Shown: piece by piece, positions 4,693 to 15,764 of the stretch | How positions within the stretch are numbered: the first letter of the stretch is position 1 | Layout: every line of letters begins with the position of its first letter | From: Myxococcota bacterium | Lineage (GTDB): Bacteria; Myxococcota_A; UBA796 | Length of the DNA stretch: 64,000 bases | Assembly: GCA_047621685.1 (NCBI GenBank) | Contig: JBLHNG010000002.1 | Coordinates: 2,350-66,349, forward strand | Reading direction: 5' to 3' | Made by a program: the position numbers and the translations under genes | The notes under the pieces: generated by a model | Told to the model about the DNA's origin: nothing | The model's input: the letters and a program-made list of their open reading frames with translations, nothing else | Database searches by the model: none

Positions 4693-5139
4693 ATGTCTGT
4701 CATGCTGATCCCTCAGACCGCTGAGTATGCCTTCCGCGCCATGAGCTGCCTGGCCAGTCGCTACACAGACCTCGCCATCCGCTCCAGGGATCTCTCCAAG
4801 CAGGCCAACATCCCGCCGTTCTACCTCTCCAAGATCATGCGTCGGCTGGTCGTCGCCGGGCTGGTGACCTCGCAGCGGGGCCACGGCGGAGGCTTCCAGC
4901 TGGCGAAGCCCCCTGGGCAGATCCGCTTCCTCGACATCCTCGAAGCCGTCGACTACCACGCCGAGCTGGGTCGATGTGCGTTCGGCATCGGTCGGTGCAA
5001 CCCTGAGAACCCCTGCCCGCTGCACGACTCCTGGAGCACGCTGCAGGGCAGCTTCCTGCACTGGGCGAGCACCAACCGCCTCGACACCCTCGCAGACAAT
5101 TCGTACCGAATCCCGCAGGCTCACGACAAGCTGGAGTAG
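4693..5139 (+). CDS. Rrf2-family transcriptional regulator, NsrR-like (Fe-S, NO-sensing type)
   Basis: M(SVM)LIPQTAEYAFRAMSCLA.. is a typical Rrf2 N-terminal wHTH (the alternative start ATG 4702 gives the canonical MLIPQTAEY). Three clustered Cys (C-x6-C-x5-C: GRCAFGIGRCNPENPC) as in Fe-S Rrf2 proteins. Adjacent to the nor genes. Confidence 0.8.
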   Translation: MSVMLIPQTAEYAFRAMSCLASRYTDLAIRSRDLSKQANIPPFYLSKIMRRLVVAGLVTSQRGHGGGFQLAKPPGQIRFLDILEAVDYHAELGRCAFGIGRCNPENPCPLHDSWSTLQGSFLHWASTNRLDTLADNSYRIPQAHDKLE

Positions 5140-6941
5140 ACCGCGCTGAGAGTCTCCACCAGATCGTCAGGCCGGGGGAGGATGCTCCAGCCGCCGGTCC
5201 CGAGCATCTGCGGCAGGTAGTCCCGGGCACGCACGTCGATGGCGAGGGCGTGGGTGTGGATGCGCTGCTGCCGGGCCTCCCGGATCGCCTGCCGGACGTC
5301 TGCCACCCCGTACCGTCCCTCGTAGCGGTCGTAGTCGGTGGGCTTGCCATCAGAGACCAGCAGCAGGAGCCGATCCTTCGCGGAGACCCGGGCCAGACCG
5401 GCGGCCGCGTGACGGATGGCCGGTCCGATCCGGGTGTAGCCCTGCGGCGCGAGTCCCCCCAGCCGACCGCGTCCGACCGACCACGGCTCGTGCCAGTCCC
5501 GGATGCACCACACCCGGACCTGGTTGCGGGTCTGAGAGGCGAAGCCGAGGACCTGGAGCCGATCTCCCAGCCGATCCGCGACCTCCCCCAGCACCAGGAC
5601 GGCCTCTCGGGCAACGTCCAGCACCCGCCGGTTGTTGATCCAGGCGTCTGAAGACAGGGACAGGTCCAGCAGCACGGTGGTCGCAATGTCCCGCTGTGCC
5701 CGACGCTGCCGGATGTACAGCCGCCGCGAGGGCTGCCGGCCCGCCGCCAGCGCAGCTCGGGCGTCCACCACCGCATCGACGTCGACATCCTCTCCCGAGC
5801 GCTGGCGGTGCGCGGGTCGCAGGCGGCTGCGGCGGGCGAGCAGGCGGCGGTGGAGGGTCTCGATGAGCCGACGGTGGGTGCGCAGGGCGGCCCGGGACCA
5901 GCTGGGATCCCCTGGCGGCAGCCCGGCGGGGTAGACGCTGCACCAGCCGGGCCGGTATCTCCGACGCCGGAAGTCCCACTCGTCGTACCGCAGCGCCGTC
6001 TCTCCCGGCTCAATGCGCGAGATGTCCGGCACTGAGGCACCCATGGAGATGTCTGCCCGGTACACCGAGTGCGCCTGAGGACCGCCCCGGATGAGGTGGG
6101 AGAGATCCAGCTCGGAGAGCGCCTCCATGTGCTCGCTGAGATCGTCGCCGCCGTCGAGCTGACGCAGGGTTCCGGCGAACTCTTCGAGGGTCTCGACCTT
6201 CTCGAAGGTGTGCGTCGGCAGCTCGGTGACCCGGTCGGGATCCCGGTGGACGATGGTGAGGTCCTCGACCGGTGGCGCCTCTTCCTCGGTGCCACCAGAG
6301 GACGGCGGAGCGGCGTCGGCATCGGCGTCAGAAGCCTCACTGACCTCCACCGGGATCAGCGCCCCCCACAGCAGCGGCGGCGGACAGGACGCCGCGCCCT
6401 CCACGACCTCATCGAGGGGCTCGCCGCGCAGGGCTGCGTGGACGAGTCGCTGTGCAGGGTGCTCGGCAGCCGGATGCGCGGCGAGCAGGATCGGCAGGAC
6501 CTCATCCAGCGCAGTCGCATAGCCAGGAAGCTCCTCCCGAAGCAGGGCGATCGCCTCCCGACCGACCCGCAGCCCGGCGAGAAAGCGGGCATCGGGATCG
6601 GCGGGGACTTTGGGGGAGAGGCGGCAGATGGTCGCCCCGGTCGCCACCCGGAGCAGGTAGAGACCGGCGTTGGCCTCCGGGTCGTCCAGCAGGTCGATCC
6701 ACGGCGGCAGCAGGAGGTCCCGCCCCCGGATGCCGCCATGGGTTCGAGCGGTGAGGATGCGGACCGGGCGCCCGGCGAGCACCGAGCCCACGATGCGCAG
6801 CCGTCCCTCAACCGTAGCAAGCTGCGCGGCCCGGTCTGCGTCAAACGCGGGTGCTTGAGTCGGGGTGACCGCCCGCCACAGGGAGCGCAGCGCCTTGAAG
6901 ATGCCCAGCTCCCAGTCCAGCTCCAGGCTTGGTCTGCCCAC
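5121..6941 (-). CDS. norD: nitric oxide reductase activation protein NorD (VWA domain)
   Basis: 606 aa with a C-terminal von Willebrand A domain carrying a MIDAS-like motif (VLLDLSLSSD). Immediately downstream of norQ/norB/norC. GTG start overlaps the norQ stop by 1 nt. Confidence 0.85.
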   Translation of the reverse strand: MGRPSLELDWELGIFKALRSLWRAVTPTQAPAFDADRAAQLATVEGRLRIVGSVLAGRPVRILTARTHGGIRGRDLLLPPWIDLLDDPEANAGLYLLRVATGATICRLSPKVPADPDARFLAGLRVGREAIALLREELPGYATALDEVLPILLAAHPAAEHPAQRLVHAALRGEPLDEVVEGAASCPPPLLWGALIPVEVSEASDADADAAPPSSGGTEEEAPPVEDLTIVHRDPDRVTELPTHTFEKVETLEEFAGTLRQLDGGDDLSEHMEALSELDLSHLIRGGPQAHSVYRADISMGASVPDISRIEPGETALRYDEWDFRRRRYRPGWCSVYPAGLPPGDPSWSRAALRTHRRLIETLHRRLLARRSRLRPAHRQRSGEDVDVDAVVDARAALAAGRQPSRRLYIRQRRAQRDIATTVLLDLSLSSDAWINNRRVLDVAREAVLVLGEVADRLGDRLQVLGFASQTRNQVRVWCIRDWHEPWSVGRGRLGGLAPQGYTRIGPAIRHAAAGLARVSAKDRLLLLVSDGKPTDYDRYEGRYGVADVRQAIREARQQRIHTHALAIDVRARDYLPQMLGTGGWSILPRPDDLVETLSAVYSSLS

Positions 6942-7744
6942 TACAGCACCAGCCGAACGACGTCCATCAGCCCGGCGATCAGCTCCGAGTCGTCGGTCAG
7001 CGGCTCGATGATGCCCGCCTGACAGGCCGCCCGAGGTGACATGCCGACACCGATCAGCCGGGCAGCCCCGACCAGCAGTCTCGTCGAGGGCTTCTCCGCC
7101 AGTCCCAGCTCCTCCAGGCCGCGCAGCTTGCCGACCAGCGCGACCAGCAGCCGGGCAGTGCGGGTGTCGATTCCGGTCTCCCCGATGAGGATCTCGGTCT
7201 CGACGTCTGCGGACGGGTAGTCAAACGACAGCCCGAGGAACCGCTGCCGTGTGGAGGGCTTCAGCTCCTTGAGCGACCCCTGGTAGCCAGGGTTGAAGCT
7301 GACCACCAGCATGAAGTCCGGCCCAGCGGTCAGCACCTCGTCGGTGCGGTCGATGTACAGCTGTCGGCGGTGATCGGTCAGCGGGTGGAGCACAACGACC
7401 ACATCGCTGCGGGCCTCAGCGATCTCGTCGATGTACAGGATCGCGCCCCGCCGGACCGCCCGGGTGACCGGACCGTCCTGCCAGACCGTCTCGCCACCCT
7501 GGATGAGGTAGCGCCCCAGCAGATCGACCGCCGAGGTGTCGTCGTTGGCCGCCACCGTGACCAGCTCTCGCCCCAGCCGCGCGGCCATGTGCTCGACATA
7601 CCGGGACTTCCCGCAGCCGGTCGGCCCCTTGAGCAGGAGCGGCAGATGGCAACCCCAGGCACGCTCAAACAGGGCGATCTCATCGCCGACCGGCCGGTAC
7701 CAGGGCAGCTCTGTGCGTGGGGGGGCTGTGCGTGGGGTGTTCAT
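6941..7744 (-). CDS. norQ: MoxR/CbbQ-type AAA+ ATPase NorQ
   Basis: 267 aa with Walker A GPTGCGKS and Walker B ILYIDEI. CbbQ/NorQ-like throughout, and it lies between norB and norD. Confidence 0.9.
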   Translation of the reverse strand: MNTPRTAPPRTELPWYRPVGDEIALFERAWGCHLPLLLKGPTGCGKSRYVEHMAARLGRELVTVAANDDTSAVDLLGRYLIQGGETVWQDGPVTRAVRRGAILYIDEIAEARSDVVVVLHPLTDHRRQLYIDRTDEVLTAGPDFMLVVSFNPGYQGSLKELKPSTRQRFLGLSFDYPSADVETEILIGETGIDTRTARLLVALVGKLRGLEELGLAEKPSTRLLVGAARLIGVGMSPRAACQAGIIEPLTDDSELIAGLMDVVRLVL

Positions 7745-9109
7745 CTACTTCGCGCTCTGCTGAAGGGCGGGGTCTGAGCGGACCTTCTGGCGGAACACCG
7801 CGCCGTATTGGATGAAGTTCCAGGTGAACAGCCCGATGCCTACAGTGAACAGGGTCGCAGCGAGGACGAGCCCGAGGAAGTGGACCGCGACGGCGTCCTG
7901 GACGTCGAGGAAGTCCATGCCGACTCGCCGCTCCAGGTAGACCTGGGTGATCCCAGCAACTGCGAACGCACCGGTCATCGCAACCATGCCGATGTTCGAC
8001 AGCCAGAACGCCCACTCAGAGGCCCAGCCAGCGAACAGCTTCTTGCCGGTCATCTCCGGCAGGACGTAGGAGATCATCGCGAAGATGAGCATCGCATAGG
8101 CCCCCCAGAACGCCAGGTGTGCGTGCATCGCGGTGACCAGGGTGCCGTGAGTCCAGATGTTGACCTGCGGGAGGGTGTGGGCGAAGCCGAGGAAGCCAGC
8201 ACCGACAAACGACATGATGCCGCAGCCCACGCTCCAGTACAGCGCGATGCGGTTCTCGTGCTTTCGACCACCCCGTCGGGCCATGGTCACGCAGTACAGG
8301 GCCATGCCGAGGAACGCCAGCGGCTCCAGAGCGGAGAACAGCCCGCCGACCATCAGCCAGTACTCCGGCGCGCCGATCCAGTAGTAGTGGTGGCCAGTGC
8401 CGAGGATTCCGGAGAGGAAGGTGAGGCCGACGATGACATACAGCCACTTCTCGACCACCTCGCGGTCCACGCCAGACAGCTTGATGAGCAGGTACGCCAG
8501 GATCGCGCCCATCACCAGCTCCCAGACCCCCTCGACCCACAGGTGGACGACCCACCAGCGGAAGTAGGAGTCGATCACCTGGGAGTCGAAGGTGATCATG
8601 CCCGGCAGGTACAGCAGGGCAGCAGCGACGAGGCCCGCGAGCAGGGTCACAGAGGTGGTGGTGAACCGCTTGCCCTTAAACAGCGTCATGCCGATGTTCA
8701 GCAGGAACGACAGGACGTTGATCACCACGAGGTAGTCCAGCGGTCGGGGAATCTCCAGGAACTTCCGACCCTCCCACCAGTTGAAGTGAAAGCCGATGAC
8801 CGCAGTCACAGCGACGATCACCAGGCTCGCCCACTGCACCCACGCCAGCGGCAGGCTCCACAGCTCAGTCTCGGCTTCGTCGGGGATGATGTAGTAGGCG
8901 CTGCCCATGAAGCCGCAGAGCATCCAGACCACCAGGAGGTTGGTGTGGGTCGCGCGGGCAACGTTGAACGGGATGATGTCGTGCAGCACGTCGTAGCCCA
9001 TGTGGGCAAAGCCCATGATGAAGCCGTAGACGATCTGGAGGGACAGCAAGAGCAAACAGGTGGCAAAAAAGGTCCAGGCTACGCGCCAGGACTTGTACTT
9101 GAGCATCAC
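7745..9109 (-). CDS. norB: nitric oxide reductase large subunit NorB (cNOR)
   Basis: 454 aa, haem-copper oxidase-like 12-TM protein with HLWVEGVWE (FeB Glu residues) and HHYYWIG motifs. ATG 9106 is the likelier start, because AGGAG lies 6 nt upstream of it; GTG 9109 is the alternative. Confidence 0.95.
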   Translation of the reverse strand: MMLKYKSWRVAWTFFATCLLLLSLQIVYGFIMGFAHMGYDVLHDIIPFNVARATHTNLLVVWMLCGFMGSAYYIIPDEAETELWSLPLAWVQWASLVIVAVTAVIGFHFNWWEGRKFLEIPRPLDYLVVINVLSFLLNIGMTLFKGKRFTTTSVTLLAGLVAAALLYLPGMITFDSQVIDSYFRWWVVHLWVEGVWELVMGAILAYLLIKLSGVDREVVEKWLYVIVGLTFLSGILGTGHHYYWIGAPEYWLMVGGLFSALEPLAFLGMALYCVTMARRGGRKHENRIALYWSVGCGIMSFVGAGFLGFAHTLPQVNIWTHGTLVTAMHAHLAFWGAYAMLIFAMISYVLPEMTGKKLFAGWASEWAFWLSNIGMVAMTGAFAVAGITQVYLERRVGMDFLDVQDAVAVHFLGLVLAATLFTVGIGLFTWNFIQYGAVFRQKVRSDPALQQSAK

Positions 9110-9115
9110 GGACTC

Positions 9116-9802
9116 CTACAGGGCGAGCAGCCAGGGGACGAGGGCGTCGAGATCGGCATCGGAGATGTTGAGGTCGGGCATCGCGGTGCCCGGCTTGATG
9201 GACTGCGGATCCGCCAGCCACGCTCGAAGCTCGTCGGCGCCGTAGCGGTCTCCCACCCCATCCAGCGCCGGTCCGACGTTGCCGCCGGTGCCGCCGATGC
9301 TGTGGCAGGACACGCAGATGGTGGAGACGAGAGCCGGTGCCGTCGAGAGGTCGACAGCCGTAGCACTCATGACAACCGGGGCCGGGGCCATGTCCGGCTC
9401 TCTTGGGAAGCCGTTGGTGTCGATCTCGCCGACCCACTTGAGGAACGCGATGACGTCGCTGATCTCGTCAGCGGTGAAGTCGTACTGCACCATCTTGCGG
9501 CGACCAGGGTACATCGCCTGCGGATCGGCGAGGAAGGTCGCCAACCACACTTCACCCCGGCGCACATAGGACCGGGTCAGCTCCGGCGCGTAGTAGGCGC
9601 CCTCGCCGAGGAGAGTGTGGCAGCCCATGCAATTATTGGCCTCCCAGATTTCCTTTCCGCGGATGACCGACTCGGTCAGGTTCTCCTCGTGGGAGCGCTC
9701 GGGGACCTGACGCAGCGTGTCTACGGTCAGCCAGAGGAAGACCCCAGAGAAGCCAAGCGTCGCCCCGAGGAAGAAGACTCGGGCTTGAGATTTCGAGAGC
9801 AT
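9116..9802 (-). CDS. norC: nitric oxide reductase small subunit NorC with an extra C-terminal class I cytochrome c domain
   Basis: 228 aa. N-terminal TM anchor plus a NorC haem domain (CMGCH, YYAPEL). After a linker there is a second mono-haem domain (CVSCH .. GTAMP). AAGGAG lies upstream of ATG 9802. Confidence 0.85.
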   Translation of the reverse strand: MLSKSQARVFFLGATLGFSGVFLWLTVDTLRQVPERSHEENLTESVIRGKEIWEANNCMGCHTLLGEGAYYAPELTRSYVRRGEVWLATFLADPQAMYPGRRKMVQYDFTADEISDVIAFLKWVGEIDTNGFPREPDMAPAPVVMSATAVDLSTAPALVSTICVSCHSIGGTGGNVGPALDGVGDRYGADELRAWLADPQSIKPGTAMPDLNISDADLDALVPWLLAL

Positions 9803-9822
9803 CTCTTTCCCTCCTTACTGGA

Positions 9823-9846
9823 TTAATAGATGTTTTTATCTGTTAA
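9823..9846 (-). promoter_or_regulatory. 24-bp AT-rich palindrome TTAATAGAT-N6-ATCTGTTAA upstream of norC
   Basis: 9-nt arms with one mismatch. The near edge is 21 nt from the norC ATG, and the Shine-Dalgarno sits at the same offset as at nirK. It matches the element at 12692..12715. Confidence 0.55.
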
Positions 9847-9865
9847 AACGGAACAAGAACGACCA

Positions 9866-10450
9866 TCACAGACCCCGGAGCGCAGCCAGCAGCGGCTCAG
9901 GCGACTGCCGGAGTCCCTCCAGCCGGATGACCGGCGTGCCCCTTGAGTCGAGCAGGGTGATGATCGAGGAGTGGTGAAGCTCGCCGCCATCGATGGCCTG
10001 GTACGAGATACCCAGCACCGCGGCGATGTCTCGGACGTGCTCCGGTGCCGGGGCGGTCAGTCGCCAGCGGTCGGTGTCCAGGCCATGCTGGTCGATGACC
10101 GACGCGAGCTGTGCGGGGGTGTCCGCCACAGGATCGAGGCTGACGAGCAGCACCCGGAGATTCGCCCGCTCTGCATCCGTCAGCGCCTCTTCCAGCGACT
10201 TGATGTCGCTGATGAGCATCGGGCAGGCGGAGGGGCAGGAGGCGTAGAACATCGAGATGAGCACCGGCTGGCCGGCGAACACCGACAGCGGGACCGCGTC
10301 GCCGTGCTGATCGATGAGCGGGGTGTCGAGGTGGTACAGCGAGTCGCCGGGGAGCGCCTCAAGCGCGGTGACTTCAGCGGGCTCAGCAGGCTCAGGTGCG
10401 CCCGAGCAGCCGACGAGCCAGGTGGTACAGATCAGAGTGAGTAAGCGCAC
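9866..10450 (-). CDS. SCO1/SenC-family copper chaperone lipoprotein
   Basis: 194 aa with lipobox LVGCSG and the thioredoxin-fold CPSACP (CxxxC) motif plus a downstream His, typical of SCO1/SenC. Confidence 0.85.
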   Translation of the reverse strand: MRLLTLICTTWLVGCSGAPEPAEPAEVTALEALPGDSLYHLDTPLIDQHGDAVPLSVFAGQPVLISMFYASCPSACPMLISDIKSLEEALTDAERANLRVLLVSLDPVADTPAQLASVIDQHGLDTDRWRLTAPAPEHVRDIAAVLGISYQAIDGGELHHSSIITLLDSRGTPVIRLEGLRQSPEPLLAALRGL

Positions 10451-11175
10451 CGGAACCCCAGGTTTTCTGTGGTGAACGAAGCATCAAGTGAGCTGCGCAT
10501 CGCGAAGCGCATGAACGAGGCGTAGTCCTGGACATCCCGGGCCGACAGGGCACCAGCCCCGCAGAAGCGAAGGTTCTCGCCGTCTCCAGACTCCCGGACA
10601 TCCGCCGAGATCAGCTGGCTGTTGAAGTCCAGCGTCCACTCCCAGATCAGGCCGTGCAGGTCGTGCAGTCCCCAGAAGTTAGCAGTCCCCTCCCCGACCG
10701 GTCGCAGCCGCTCGCCAGGACCAGCGCCGTACCACGCCAGGATCGCGGCGAGAGTCTCAGGATCCTCACGACCACCGTGGGATGTTGTGGCGGTGGCGTC
10801 GGCGACGTACTCCCACTGATAGACCCCCGGCAGATCACCACCAGCGGCCTGGCAGTAAGCCCGCGCGGCGAACCAGCTCACGCCGGTGACCGGGTGGTCG
10901 GGATGCAGCACCCCGAAGTCCGCCGGACCGCGCCAGGACGACAGGTAGCCAGCATCGGCGAAGACCGCTGGAGGTGCCCCCCTCGCCCATGTCGGATTTG
11001 ACCTGACAAACGCCATGAATTCCGCGTTGGTCACCGGTGTGGTGTCCATGGAGAACGCCGCGACCGAGACAACCTCCTGGCCTTCCCCAGGCGGGTAGAA
11101 CGGCGCATGCTGCCCTTGAGCAATGGCGACTCGCTCCGCTGCACCGGAGAGGGCGATCAGGAGGAAAGAGAGCAT
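10432..11175 (-). CDS. nirV: formylglycine-generating-enzyme (SUMF1) family protein, NirV-like
   Basis: 247 aa with an FGE-sulfatase-like sequence (..PVTGVSWFAARAYC.., GLHDLHGLIWEWT, GFRCA). ATGA overlap with the nirK stop. nirV is the usual gene downstream of nirK. Confidence 0.75.
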   Translation of the reverse strand: MLSFLLIALSGAAERVAIAQGQHAPFYPPGEGQEVVSVAAFSMDTTPVTNAEFMAFVRSNPTWARGAPPAVFADAGYLSSWRGPADFGVLHPDHPVTGVSWFAARAYCQAAGGDLPGVYQWEYVADATATTSHGGREDPETLAAILAWYGAGPGERLRPVGEGTANFWGLHDLHGLIWEWTLDFNSQLISADVRESGDGENLRFCGAGALSARDVQDYASFMRFAMRSSLDASFTTENLGFRCAYSL

Positions 11176-12671
11176 CAGTGAGCCGCGCCCGGAGGCCGCT
11201 CAGTCCCAGCGCGCACGGCAGCAACCTGCTCTGCGGTGACGGTGGTGCCGTTGTTGTCCCAGCTTCCGTAGACGAAGGTGAGGATGTTGGCGACCTCGTC
11301 GTCGTTGAGCTGACTCATCGGCGGCATGACCGAGCTGTACGCCTCACCGTTGACCGTCACCGGACCGGTCAGGCCGTTGACCACCACTTCAATGGCGCGG
11401 TCGACGTCGGCGTTGAGGAAGTCCGAGCCAGCCAGCGGCGGGAAGACTCCCTTGAGTCCAGCGCCGTCGGGCTGGTGGCAGGTCGAGCAGGTGCCAGCGA
11501 ACAGGCTCTCACCAGCAGCGATCTGAGCCTCTCGGCTGAGCACACCACCCGCGAGCTGCTCGGCGGCCTGGGCGACGGCCCCGGTGGGCTCGGCCTTGTC
11601 GGCCAGGTAGACGCTGGAGACTTCCTTGCCCGAGTAGATCGCCAGGTCGTCATCGCCCTCGACCTTCATCATGCCCAGCGCGCCCTTGTTGAACGCCCGG
11701 AAGATGCTGTGGTCGACCAGGATGTAGGTCCCCGGTGCCTCGACGTAGTACTCCACGACGGCCGCGCCGCCGGAGGGGATGAGCGTGGTCTGAACGTTCT
11801 CCTGGTAGTTCGAGCCGCCCTCGGTGTAGACCCTGTCGAAGATCTCGCCGATGACATGGAAGCTGCTGACGAGGTTCGGGCCGCCGTTGCCGACGTAGAG
11901 CCGGACCGTCTCACCGACGTTGGCGACCAGGGCATTGTCGCCAACCAGCGATCCCTCAGAGCCGTTGAACAGCACGTAGGTCGCGTTCTCCTCGATGGCC
12001 TTCTGCATGTCGAAGGGTTGAAGTCCCTTCTCGCGGTATTTTCCGACCGTGTAGAAGTCGCCCTGCATGACGTAGTACTCGCGGTCGACCGGGGGCAGCC
12101 CTTCTGGCGGCTCGACGAGGATGAGCCCGTACATGCCGTTGGCGATGTGCATGCCGACCGGCGCGGTGGCGCAGTGGTAGACGAACAGGCCCGGGTTGAG
12201 CGCCTTGAAGGTGAACTGAGACTCATGCCCCGGCGCGGTGAAGCTGCTGGCCGCGCCGCCGCCCGGTCCGGTGACCGCGTGCAGGTCAATGTTGTGGGGC
12301 ATCTTGGAGTCGGGGTGGTTCTGGAGATGGAACTCCACGGTGTCGCCCTGACGAATCCGGATGAACTTCCCGGGCACGTCGCCGCCGAACGTCCAGAAGG
12401 TGTAGTCGACGCCGTCGGAGATCGGCATCACCTTCTCGACGACCTCCAGCTCCACGATCACCTTCGCTGGCTCGGTGCGGCCGGTGGGCGGCGGGACCAC
12501 GGGGGCGCTGGTGATCACTGCGTTTATCGGCTCACCCTGCGGGGGGCCGAAGTCGCCGGCCCTTGAGCCGCCGATCTCAGGGCTCTCAGGGGGCAGAGTG
12601 GTTGTGGGCTGCTGTGAAGGGGTGTCGCACCCGGTCAGAGTCAGCGCGAGGAGGATGGGGAGGGTCATCAT
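11175..12671 (-). CDS. nirK: copper-containing nitrite reductase NirK, lipoprotein form with a C-terminal cytochrome c domain
   Basis: Start taken at ATG 12671 ([15 protein letters not shown] lipobox; AAGGAG upstream). Cu ligands [10 protein letters not shown] and [16 protein letters not shown]. The C-terminal ~100 aa carry CSTCH, a class I cytochrome c. Confidence 0.95.
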
Positions 12672-12691
12672 CGCTGTGCTCCTTGTCGATC

Positions 12692-12715
12692 TTAATAGAT
12701 ATAAAGGTCTATTAA
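12692..12715 (-). promoter_or_regulatory. 24-bp AT-rich palindrome TTAATAGA-N8-TCTATTAA upstream of nirK
   Basis: Perfect 8-nt arms (9-nt with one mismatch). The near edge is 21 nt from the nirK ATG. Same sequence and spacing as 9823..9846. Confidence 0.55.
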
Positions 12716-12763
12716 ACCTATAAGTGATCACCCCCGCCGCGGTCAACCGGTATCCTCACCGCC

Positions 12764-13360
12764 ATGCTCCTCCTCCTCCTGACCTGCGCCGCCACCCCAC
12801 CCGTTCCCGAGCGCATCGCAGCCGCTGCAGTCACCGAGTCCTGTCAGCTGTGCATCTTCCAGCGAGACGGAGCGCTCTCCGACATCCTCAAGCGGCTGAT
12901 CTGGGAGGTCCCGGTCGAGGACATCGAGTTCGGCCACTGCTTCGCCTGTGTGCGCTGCCCGGGAGAAGACGGCCTCTCCGACTGCCGCGGCTTCTCCCCC
13001 GTCGACCTCGACGCCGCCGAGTACCCACCCCAGCCCGGGCACCTCTACCTCGACGACACCGATCCCTGGACCCGGGTGGACTGCCGACCGCTGCTGCCGG
13101 GACAGGCTGAGCGACTGTGGTCCTACGCCCTGAGCTACGACGACGAGCATCCCTACCAGGTCATCAACAAGAAGGGCGGTCGGAGCTGCCTGGGCTTCTG
13201 CGCGGATGTTGCTGCTGCTGCCGGAATGTCGCCGAGGCAGCGGGCGGGTGACCTCACCGTGCCTGGTGCGATGCGGTTTCCGGATGCGACCTTCAGCCTT
13301 GATGCGCCCAATGAGATGACTGCTGCGGAGCTGACTGATGCGCTGGTCAAAGGGCGTTGA
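12764..13360 (+). CDS. hypothetical Cys-rich lipoprotein
   Basis: 198 aa, MLLLLLTCAA lipobox-like N-terminus. No family recognised. Confidence 0.45.
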   Translation: MLLLLLTCAATPPVPERIAAAAVTESCQLCIFQRDGALSDILKRLIWEVPVEDIEFGHCFACVRCPGEDGLSDCRGFSPVDLDAAEYPPQPGHLYLDDTDPWTRVDCRPLLPGQAERLWSYALSYDDEHPYQVINKKGGRSCLGFCADVAAAAGMSPRQRAGDLTVPGAMRFPDATFSLDAPNEMTAAELTDALVKGR

Positions 13361-14375: not shown

Positions 14376-14951
14376 TCACGCCGCAGCCTCCTCAATGCCG
14401 TTGAGCACCAGCAACCGGGCCTCCTTCCGGACCATCTCGATCGGGGCCGCAGCGGGGTCTCGGCAGTGGTAGAGCAGCAGCCCTTCGACCCCCATCAGCA
14501 GCCCCCGCAGCCTCAGTGGGGGAACCGACCGCCCCACCGACAGCAGCGCGACCAGCCGATCCAGCGTCTGCTCTCGGACCGGTGAGAGCATCGAGCCCGG
14601 CCGAACCGCCTCGGTCTGGAGGTGGATCAGCAGCACTCCGGCATCGAGCTGGAAGTCGACGAGGGCCTCCACCGCCGCCAGGATCCGCTCCTGCGGCCCC
14701 GAGGTACGCTCCATGGCCGCGACCACCGCGTCGATGAGCGCGCCCATCCGGTGAATGTAGAGGTCGCACATCACCCCCTCGATGCTGGGGTAGTGAAGGT
14801 AGAACGTCCGCCGGGAGAGCGAAGCGGCGGCGAGGATGTGGCGCACGGTGCTGTCGCGAAGCCCGTGATCAGCCACCACCACCGCAGCCCCGGCGAGGAT
14901 TCGCTCAGCAGTGGAGGGCGGTCGGTCAGCATCAGGCAAGGTCGATGTCAT
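14376..14951 (-). CDS. TetR/AcrR-family transcriptional regulator
   Basis: 191 aa from ATG 14951 (MTSTLPDA..). N-terminal HTH ..AERILAGAAVVVADHGLRDSTVRHILAAASLSRRTFYLHYPS.. is typical of TetR. Confidence 0.8.
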   Translation of the reverse strand: MTSTLPDADRPPSTAERILAGAAVVVADHGLRDSTVRHILAAASLSRRTFYLHYPSIEGVMCDLYIHRMGALIDAVVAAMERTSGPQERILAAVEALVDFQLDAGVLLIHLQTEAVRPGSMLSPVREQTLDRLVALLSVGRSVPPLRLRGLLMGVEGLLLYHCRDPAAAPIEMVRKEARLLVLNGIEEAAA

Positions 14952-14967
14952 GGCTAATTCTCTCCAG

Positions 14968-14982
14968 TAAACACGTTGTTTA
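14968..14982. promoter_or_regulatory. palindrome TAAACA-CGT-TGTTTA in the tetR/DUF4097 divergent intergenic region (candidate TetR operator)
   Basis: Perfect 6-bp arms with a 3-nt spacer, 17 nt upstream of the tetR start codon in an AT-rich island. Confidence 0.4.
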
Positions 14983-15071
14983 TACGCTGAAAAGCATCCA
15001 CGCTTGAGATCGGCGGTGACGGTTCGGGACCTGTGCGGTGTCTCAACCGCCAACCACCCCCCGGAGGCCCC

Positions 15072-15764
15072 ATGCTTCTCTCCCTTTTCTTCGCCTGTAG
15101 CTCTCAGGTCCTCGACACCCACACCCGCACCCTGCCCGCTGAGGCGCTGACTGGACTGCGCTTTGACATCTCCGCTGGCGATGCGATCTTCATCGCCGAG
15201 GAAGGCGCAGACGCGATCACTGCAGAGGCGACCGTGGGCGCAATCGTCGGACCGGGCCACGAACCCTGCGACGTGATGGCCGCCTTCACCTTCGTGCTCG
15301 ACGAGCGTGGCGACGAGGCGGTCCTGGAGGTCGGCTTTGAGGGTGCCGAGCACATGGGCGCCTGGGCAGACCTCGTGGTCACCGGCCCCCCGCACCTCAT
15401 CCTGACCGGCGAAGACAGCAGCGGCGACCTGGAGATCGTGGACTTCGCCGGGCTGACGCTGACGGAGGGCTCCGGAGACACCAGCGTGTTCAACATCTCT
15501 GGCGATGTGGACATCGAGGACGACAGCGGCGACCTGTGGATCGACGGGGTCGGCGGTGACCTGATGGTGATCGATGGCTCCGGCGACCTCAACATCTACG
15601 CGGTGGCTGGAGACGTCTTTATTGAGGACGACAGCGGCGATATCCGGGTTGATGGTGTGGGTGGGGCGGTGTCGGTCATTGATGGTAGCGGCGATATCCG
15701 TGTTTCCAACGCGGGCTCTACGGACATCATCGAGGACGGCTCTGGCGACATCCGCCTGGACTGA
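15072..15764 (+). CDS. DUF4097-like putative adhesin/beta-helix lipoprotein
   Basis: MLLSLFFACSS lipobox (GTG 15033 is an alternative start). C-terminal half built of reiterated (I/V)DGSGD(I/L) units. Confidence 0.55.
   Translation: MLLSLFFACSSQVLDTHTRTLPAEALTGLRFDISAGDAIFIAEEGADAITAEATVGAIVGPGHEPCDVMAAFTFVLDERGDEAVLEVGFEGAEHMGAWADLVVTGPPHLILTGEDSSGDLEIVDFAGLTLTEGSGDTSVFNISGDVDIEDDSGDLWIDGVGGDLMVIDGSGDLNIYAVAGDVFIEDDSGDIRVDGVGGAVSVIDGSGDIRVSNAGSTDIIEDGSGDIRLD

Follow-up and report, generated by a model that had tools for sequence, protein, structure and literature searches.

Rrf2-family iron-sulfur (Fe-S) repressors are known to govern copper nitrite reductase and nitric oxide (NO) reductase genes. 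In Neisseria (aniA/nirK, norB, dnrN) and Nitrosomonas europaea (nirK cluster), the Rrf2 repressor NsrR is encoded near its targets, holds both reductases under a palindromic operator overlapping the promoter, and counts nnrS and dnrN/ytfE-type genes in its regulon (PMC1274295). We analysed a 64,000-nt stretch of a Myxococcota genome (contig JBLHNG010000002.1, GenBank assembly GCA_047621685.1), hereafter the window, in which a 24-bp palindrome precedes both nirK and norC and an Rrf2-family gene lies in the same nir-nor island. The palindromes are probably operators of the repressor encoded by that gene (4693-5139), a predicted Fe-S protein that would control nirK, norC and other NO genes. The locus resembles the Neisseria and Nitrosomonas systems in each of these respects, with the overlap of operator and promoter being predicted here. 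It differs from them in operator half-site and spacing, in failing the NsrR equivalog, in its uncultured Myxococcota and Planctomycetota hosts, and in a regulon whose predicted members in relatives include nosZ and a nap-linked cytochrome. Control of nirK and nor by an Rrf2 repressor has precedents in Neisseria and Nitrosomonas, and this locus extends that principle rather than introducing a new one.

Other regulators share parts of this picture. In Thermus thermophilus, the mobile nir/nor cluster nic also encodes an Rrf2 Fe-S regulator, with a palindrome at nir and nor promoters; its motif, CTTGACC-NN-GGTCATGG, lies 50-73 nt before start codons, and the protein is a dual activator and repressor, whereas the site described here abuts the Shine-Dalgarno (SD) sequence, a position that fits a repressor (PMC5748679). 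The NsrR proteins of E. coli, Bacillus subtilis and Streptomyces coelicolor (5N07) share with the window protein a winged-helix Rrf2 fold, three C-terminal Cys ligands, an acidic residue at the N-terminal ligand position (E11 here) and a presumed NO-labile cluster controlling DNA binding. Their motif is different, and the predicted targets here belong to respiratory denitrification and do not include hmp. IscR of E. coli (4HF0-4HF2) has an aligned Cys3-His pattern, a GGG wing with a conserved Arg and a palindromic operator of ~24-25 bp, and the GAC...GTC core of the present operator is reminiscent of type 1 IscR sites. Unlike IscR, the window protein fails the equivalog, is not encoded beside isc/suf genes, is associated with an NO and denitrification regulon, and coexists with a separate IscR-like paralogue. 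NnrR and DNR of the Crp-Fnr family follow the same logic of NO-dependent co-induction of nir and nor (and nnrS), but they belong to another protein family with another mechanism, activating from TTGAT-N4-ATCAA boxes near -41.5.

The operator matches none of the described motifs. These are the published NsrR motif, gATGyAT-N5-ATrCATc (PMC1274295), the Thermus NsrR motif, and the FNR/DNR box, a 14-bp palindrome that the element does not match, as an initial annotation of the window had noted, and from which it differs in both half-site and spacing. Literature searches turned up neither this motif nor any NsrR-type regulon described from Myxococcota. In function, the regulator would resemble Neisseria and Nitrosomonas NsrR, and by membership it appears to be a separate Rrf2 subfamily with its own operator.

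Palindromic sites at nirK and norC

Two copies of one palindrome occupy the leaders of nirK and norC. The initial annotation had placed them correctly: TTAATAGATATAAAGGTCTATTAA lies at 12692-12715 upstream of nirK and TTAATAGATGTTTTTATCTGTTAA at 9823-9846 upstream of norC, both as read from the sequence. Each is an AT-rich 24-bp element of 9-6-9 architecture with one mismatch to TTAATAGAT-N6-ATCTATTAA. The annotated absence of a third copy also held, as a scan of the window at up to three mismatches returned these two sites only; 100 dinucleotide-preserving shuffles returned none. The nirK copy sits in the 92-nt divergent spacer between nirK and an open reading frame (ORF) at 12764-13360. The norC copy is intercistronic, in the 63-nt spacer between senC and norC, and begins 19 nt past the stop codon of senC/SCO1.

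The geometry of the two leaders is nearly the same. On the minus strand, exactly 20 nt separate palindrome and ATG at both nirK (ATG 12671) and norC (ATG 9802), in agreement with the equal distance annotated before. The AAGGAG SD sequences had been described as sharing an identical offset and are in fact 1 nt apart: the nirK SD (12679-12684, minus strand) follows its operator by 7 nt and precedes the ATG by 7 nt, and the norC SD (9811-9816, minus strand) does so by 6 and 8 nt. The minus-strand nirK leader reads TTGACC-(18 nt)-TATAGG-t-TTAATAGACCTTTATATCTATTAA-gatcgac-AAGGAG-cacagcg-ATG, and the norC leader TTAACAGATAAAAACATCTATTAA-tccagt-AAGGAG-ggaaagag-ATG. As a side observation, a half-site-like TTACTGGAT (10.2 bits) lies on the other strand at 9815-9823, where it overlaps the SD region and one end, the left, of the norC operator, probably by chance.

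A weak candidate promoter adjoins the nirK operator. The sigma-70-like TTGACC-N18-TATAGG proposed earlier is present as described on the minus strand at 12717-12746 (TTGACC 12746-12741, TATAGG 12722-12717), 1 nt upstream of the operator. The consensus promoter scan did not accept it because its -10 element lacks the final T. A promoter and terminator scan of 9700-13000 called nothing, and comparison of orthologous upstream regions by eye found no conserved -35/-10 pair. In one related locus (L063), a TTATAAG similar to TATAGG abuts the nirK operator.

The palindrome is rare in its own genome and confined to NO-related genes. The genome is an 8.4-Mb metagenome-assembled genome (MAG) in 944 contigs, 66% GC and ~90% complete, and the window is C2:2350-66349 in our contig numbering. 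We scanned it once by mismatch count and twice by position weight matrix (PWM), the last time with a 34-site matrix and no composition prefilter; all the scans agreed, and the first matrix scan, which used an AT-content prefilter, and the unfiltered 34-site scan gave the same four sites. With the 34-site matrix these four score 28.8-37.9 bits, a fifth scores 17.8 and nothing else exceeds 16. The nirK operator is the top site of the whole genome at 37.9 bits, and the norC operator scores 33.1. The third and fourth copies lie on contig C23 (563-586 and 7307-7330): one is 22 nt before an outer-membrane porin gene followed by NnrS (PF05940, 3e-38), and the other is 16 nt before a DUF1858-DUF2249 gene. 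The genome-wide motif search that the initial annotation had called for thus added two sites only, and all four sites precede NO-related genes (nirK, norC, the porin-nnrS operon and DUF1858-DUF2249), the last two being well-known members of the NO response. None stands at isc/suf genes, the targets expected of an IscR-type regulator. The porin has no Pfam match in this genome, and its orthologues in relatives match Alginate_exp.

Two further observations concern the genomic copies. We rejected a dispersed palindrome of the repetitive extragenic palindromic (REP) type, which would show tens to hundreds of intergenic copies unrelated to gene function, for this genome, with four copies, all at NO genes. 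The fifth-best site, TCGACAGACCGCTGAGTCTGTTGA at C292:4653-4676 (17.8 bits), may be a chance match.

Conservation of the motif and its link to the Rrf2 gene

The motif recurs at orthologous genes in related bacteria. We examined genomes of other families of the same order together with 30 fetched loci, and the carriers are uncultured Myxococcota and some Planctomycetota MAGs. The consensus of 34 non-redundant sites is TyAAyrGAy-N6-rTCyrTTrA. Within the half-site T-y-A-A-y-r-G-A-y, every site keeps G7 and A8, and almost every site T1, A3 and A4; the spacer varies, and the GA/TC dinucleotides, which never change, stand 10 bp apart. Strong matches lie directly upstream of nirK, norC, nosZ, DUF1858-DUF2249 and ytfE/RIC (ScdA_N plus hemerythrin). 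Further targets are the Alginate_exp porin, a tetrahaem lipoprotein cytochrome heading a nap-type operon, and a haem-copper oxidase gene. Orthologous sites precede nirK in G031, G028, G035, G026, L056, L063 and L065, and norC in L060, L061, L062, L063, L064-66 and G026. A 33-bit operator stands immediately before nosZ, recognised by its nos_propeller domains, at L058:1097-1120, which is the same place as G093:C1:755674; the predicted regulon would in some relatives extend to nitrous oxide (N2O) reduction.

Several peripheral matches were noted among the relatives. The Alginate_exp porin is a conserved regulon member, found also in a Planctomycetota MAG (L072), and could act as a channel of the outer membrane connected with N-oxide metabolism. 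Upstream of nirK in G036 (L086:1456-1475), a spacing variant, TTAACGGAC-CT-GTCCATTGA, keeps the same arms around a 2-nt instead of a 6-nt spacer; either decay of an operator or a different mode of binding would account for it. Degenerate-pattern matches in low-GC genomes of family f1 (L009-L016; 46-62% GC, no Rrf2 orthologue) score 10.8-20.9 bits. We took these for chance, as a control pattern is similarly frequent there.

The same alignment of sites speaks to whether the element acts as DNA or as RNA. A hairpin in the 5' untranslated region or between cistrons could affect how the nirK and norC messages are translated or processed, or how stable they are, since the site abuts the SD and the intercistronic norC copy would be part of the message if a single transcript runs from nirK to norD. 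The predicted hairpins are weak, however, with minimum free energies of -6.7 and -6.8 kcal/mol (z = -0.36 and -0.64 against shuffles), and the minimum-energy fold at norC bypasses the palindrome. Of the 306 arm pairs in the 34 sites, 50 are mismatches with no compensating change, and 12 sites only have a Watson-Crick closing pair (9-16). The element can also lie in either orientation with respect to the target gene, is found in divergent spacers and tracks the gene for a DNA-binding protein. Conservation resides in the sequence and not in the pairing; we rejected a structured RNA hairpin and regard an RNA role as highly improbable.

Three lines of evidence connect the predicted operator to the Rrf2 gene at 4693-5139 (plus strand; PF02082, 9.1e-30), which is convergent with norD. 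The first is proximity. In L056, L062-L066, L068, L069, L070 and L073, about ten independent MAG loci, the motif lies no more than ~150 bp ahead of the Rrf2 gene, in many cases inside a divergent spacer common with norC or nirK. Nearly everywhere, the Rrf2 orthologue also adjoins norD, norC, nirK or senC and is embedded in a nir/nor cluster. The second is co-occurrence. Among 151 genomes of the order, 46 carry an Rrf2 orthologue (E < 1e-28, 42-58% identity) and 23 carry a strict 24-nt degenerate pattern; 17 have both, 29 the orthologue alone, 6 the pattern alone and 99 neither (Fisher p = 3.6e-6). Four of the six genomes with the pattern alone are low-GC genomes in which a control pattern is equally frequent. 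Together with the comparison of NirK-bearing genomes that follows, proximity, co-occurrence and embedding in the nir/nor cluster are standard comparative-genomics criteria for assigning sites to a regulator, and here they point to the Rrf2 protein as the probable cognate factor.

The third line, a comparison of ten NirK-bearing genomes, follows the same division. Seven of them have the orthologue, and in five of these a site lies upstream of nirK (22.8-34.8 bits). None of the three without it (G018, G019 and G025) has one; their best matches range from -4.7 to 14.3 bits, and the 14.3-bit match falls inside the nirK gene. The genome of the window holds two Rrf2 genes, the window copy and an IscR-like paralogue on contig C14. 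We rejected the paralogue as the cognate factor, as its relatives occur in many genomes that lack the motif.

Several points weigh against assigning the palindrome to this Rrf2 protein. Autoregulation is not seen in the window's own genome: neither the Rrf2 gene nor the nap-linked tetrahaem cytochrome gene, both of which have sites in relatives, is preceded by one (best 7.3 bits). An exact match to the strict pattern is missing from 29 of the 46 orthologue-bearing genomes; the pattern is itself insensitive and misses one of the four sites in the window's genome. Some PWM scores are partly circular, as the training set includes some of the relatives' sites. Finally, two genomes of one genus (G119 and G111, genus g57) carry 57 and 37 copies of the palindrome without an orthologue. 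These copies, of the form TCAACGGAC-N6-GTCCGTTGA, were counted at up to two mismatches (controls 1 and 0; loci L096-L109). They are intergenic, have variable spacers and lie beside unrelated genes such as skp|lpxD, an ABC ATPase and a kinase. They could be a REP-like dispersed palindrome or sites of a global regulator. Across the order, the palindrome is therefore not exclusive to this regulator or to an NO regulon; the four-site picture in the window's genome is unaffected.

These findings bear on a different assignment, in which another DNA-binding protein recognises the palindrome and the Rrf2 protein is merely co-resident on the island. The orthologue-free copies in G119 and G111 and the missing site at the Rrf2 gene in the window's genome would both fit it. 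A candidate is also at hand: the initial annotation had named the Rrf2 gene as the sole regulator inside the island, and a TetR-family gene lies close by at 14376-15395, 1.7 kb upstream of nirK. Against such a protein, Rrf2 is the only regulator consistently found beside the sites, at about 20 independent loci and frequently across a common divergent spacer. Its co-occurrence with the motif is significant, and the NirK genomes that lack the orthologue lack the site as well. We consider a different binding protein unlikely, and assignment of the palindrome to the Rrf2 protein remains the favoured reading.

The Rrf2 protein and predicted repression

The window protein is a putative Fe-S Rrf2 regulator that is not demonstrably an orthologue of NsrR or IscR. 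Its Rrf2 domain is well supported (PF02082, 103.9 bits against a cut-off of 30; TIGR00738 rrf2_super, 98.1 against 73.3), and the superfamily is the only family-model cut-off that it passes. It scores 28 bits against a cut-off of 182 for the NsrR equivalog NF008240, 63.8 against 207.55 for the IscR equivalog TIGR02010, and 46.9 against 275 for the IscR equivalog NF008110. In a profile search against solved structures, IscR comes at ~60 bits and RsrR at ~59, while S. coelicolor NsrR is tenth best at 41.5. The earlier label 'Rrf2/NsrR-like' fits the protein in role; by family it falls below the NsrR threshold, and its motif is not the published NsrR motif.

Its predicted ligand set is distinctive. 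C95-X6-C102-X5-C108-X2-H111 and E11 are invariant in nine orthologues. In HMMER alignments, the Cys3-His residues fall on IscR positions 92, 98, 104 and 107, with the first Cys spacer one residue longer, and E11 aligns with Glu8 of RsrR. This position is a cluster ligand in RsrR and is Asp8 in S. coelicolor NsrR.

The position of the operator appears incompatible with activation. In many loci, 0-7 nt lie between its end and the SD, and 10-22 nt between its end and the start codon. A transcript that bears the SD must start at or upstream of it, which puts the centre of the site at about -13 to -20 at the furthest. A centre that near to the start either overlaps the core promoter or transcription start or is itself transcribed, which would be a repressor position and not an activator position.

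We propose that a homodimer with an intact Fe-S cluster would bind TyAAyrGAy-N6-rTCyrTTrA, the GA/TC dinucleotides 10 bp apart being presented on one helix face. A 24-bp palindrome of this kind would suit the sites of about 23-29 bp that Rrf2 dimers bind. The bound dimer would cover the core promoter or the first transcribed bases, just upstream of the SD. Transcription of nirK-nirV-senC and norCBQD would be blocked, as would that of the porin-nnrS operon and the DUF1858-DUF2249 gene. NO, or NO derived from nitrite, would nitrosylate the cluster and release the protein, and the NO producer NirK would be derepressed together with the consumers and protectors Nor, NnrS and DUF1858-DUF2249. We propose an Fe-S repressor whose holo form binds and which NO releases because the content of the regulon matches that of published NO regulons (PMC1274295). 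The shared NO-responsive operator suggested by the initial annotation gains support from both the genome search and comparative genomics, with NO as a signal that we infer from regulon content.

The norC copy most likely guards an internal promoter. We favour this because the arrangement of site and SD is kept where norC is an independent divergent unit (L062, L064-66). It could conceivably serve instead as a roadblock on a read-through transcript.

The Rrf2 protein might also bind the palindrome and yet act differently, as an activator or dual regulator, or sense O2 or Fe-S status rather than NO. Thermus NsrR offers a precedent, activating PnorC and PnirJ while repressing PnirS (PMC5748679), and the IscR-like Cys3-His ligand set would suit another signal. 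The distance of 10-22 nt to SD or ATG in many loci is, however, too short for an activator position. Moreover, the regulon (nirK, nor, nnrS, ytfE, DUF1858, nosZ) fits known NO regulons (PMC1274295), and isc/suf genes are not among the targets. We hold activation or another signal to be very unlikely, and NO-relieved repression is the mechanism that we prefer.

A broader reading extends beyond the window, and we judge the case for it to be evenly balanced. An undescribed Rrf2 subfamily, neither NsrR nor IscR orthologue and marked by IscR-type Cys3-His residues with an invariant N-terminal Glu, would serve uncultured Myxococcota and some Planctomycetota as the master repressor that responds to NO and governs the entire denitrification chain. 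It would act through a new 9-6-9 operator on the nap-linked cytochrome, nirK, cNOR, nosZ, nnrS, ytfE, DUF1858-DUF2249 and the Alginate_exp porin. In one genus, the palindrome would have multiplied into some 40-60 dispersed copies, forming either a global regulon or a REP-like element.

The predicted pair of regulator and operator gives a sequence-level handle on NO metabolism in lineages known from MAGs. Several of the Myxococcota and Planctomycetota MAGs here are labelled as wastewater or environmental samples, and nothing has been published on the control of NO and N2O turnover in such lineages. The pair could be used to predict genes co-induced by NO, including nosZ in some lineages. For biochemical study, it also singles out a putative Rrf2 Fe-S sensor whose ligand set is unusual, and it connects two conserved but functionally uncharacterised members of the regulon, the DUF1858-DUF2249 protein and the Alginate_exp porin, with NO.

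The island and its neighbours

The genes around the operators form a denitrification island. Matches to Pfam and NCBIfam profiles upheld the gene identities given in the initial annotation. On the minus strand, nirK (11175-12671) encodes a copper nitrite reductase that has a lipoprotein signal and, at its C-terminal end, a cytochrome c domain (TIGR02376, 360.7 bits, cut-off 296.3; Pfam Cu-oxidase and Cytochrome_C). The same strand carries a nirV-like gene of the FGE-sulfatase family (10432-11175; PF03781, 9.6e-30) and a SCO1/SenC copper chaperone gene (9866-10450; PF02630, 2.3e-18). The nor genes, also on the minus strand, comprise a norC-like di-haem cytochrome c gene with two cytochrome c stretches (9116-9802) and a norB-like haem-copper oxidase subunit I gene (7745-9109; PF00115, 6.2e-62), then norQ (6941-7744; AAA_5 and CbbQ_C matches) and norD (5121-6941; VWA match).

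The nir-nor-Rrf2 island (window ~4700-12750) is patchily distributed. The Rrf2 orthologue and this NirK are absent from 15 other genomes of the window's family, including one of the same genus, and the island is found in four other families of the order with NirK identities of 73-79%. This distribution suggests an accessory island, possibly transferred.

On the far side of the nirK operator, 48 nt away, a divergent Cys-rich ORF of 198 aa begins (12764-13360, plus strand). It has no Pfam or NCBIfam match and was not found in the related loci. Its GC by codon position (0.69/0.50/0.80) makes it look coding, and it may be co-regulated with nirK.

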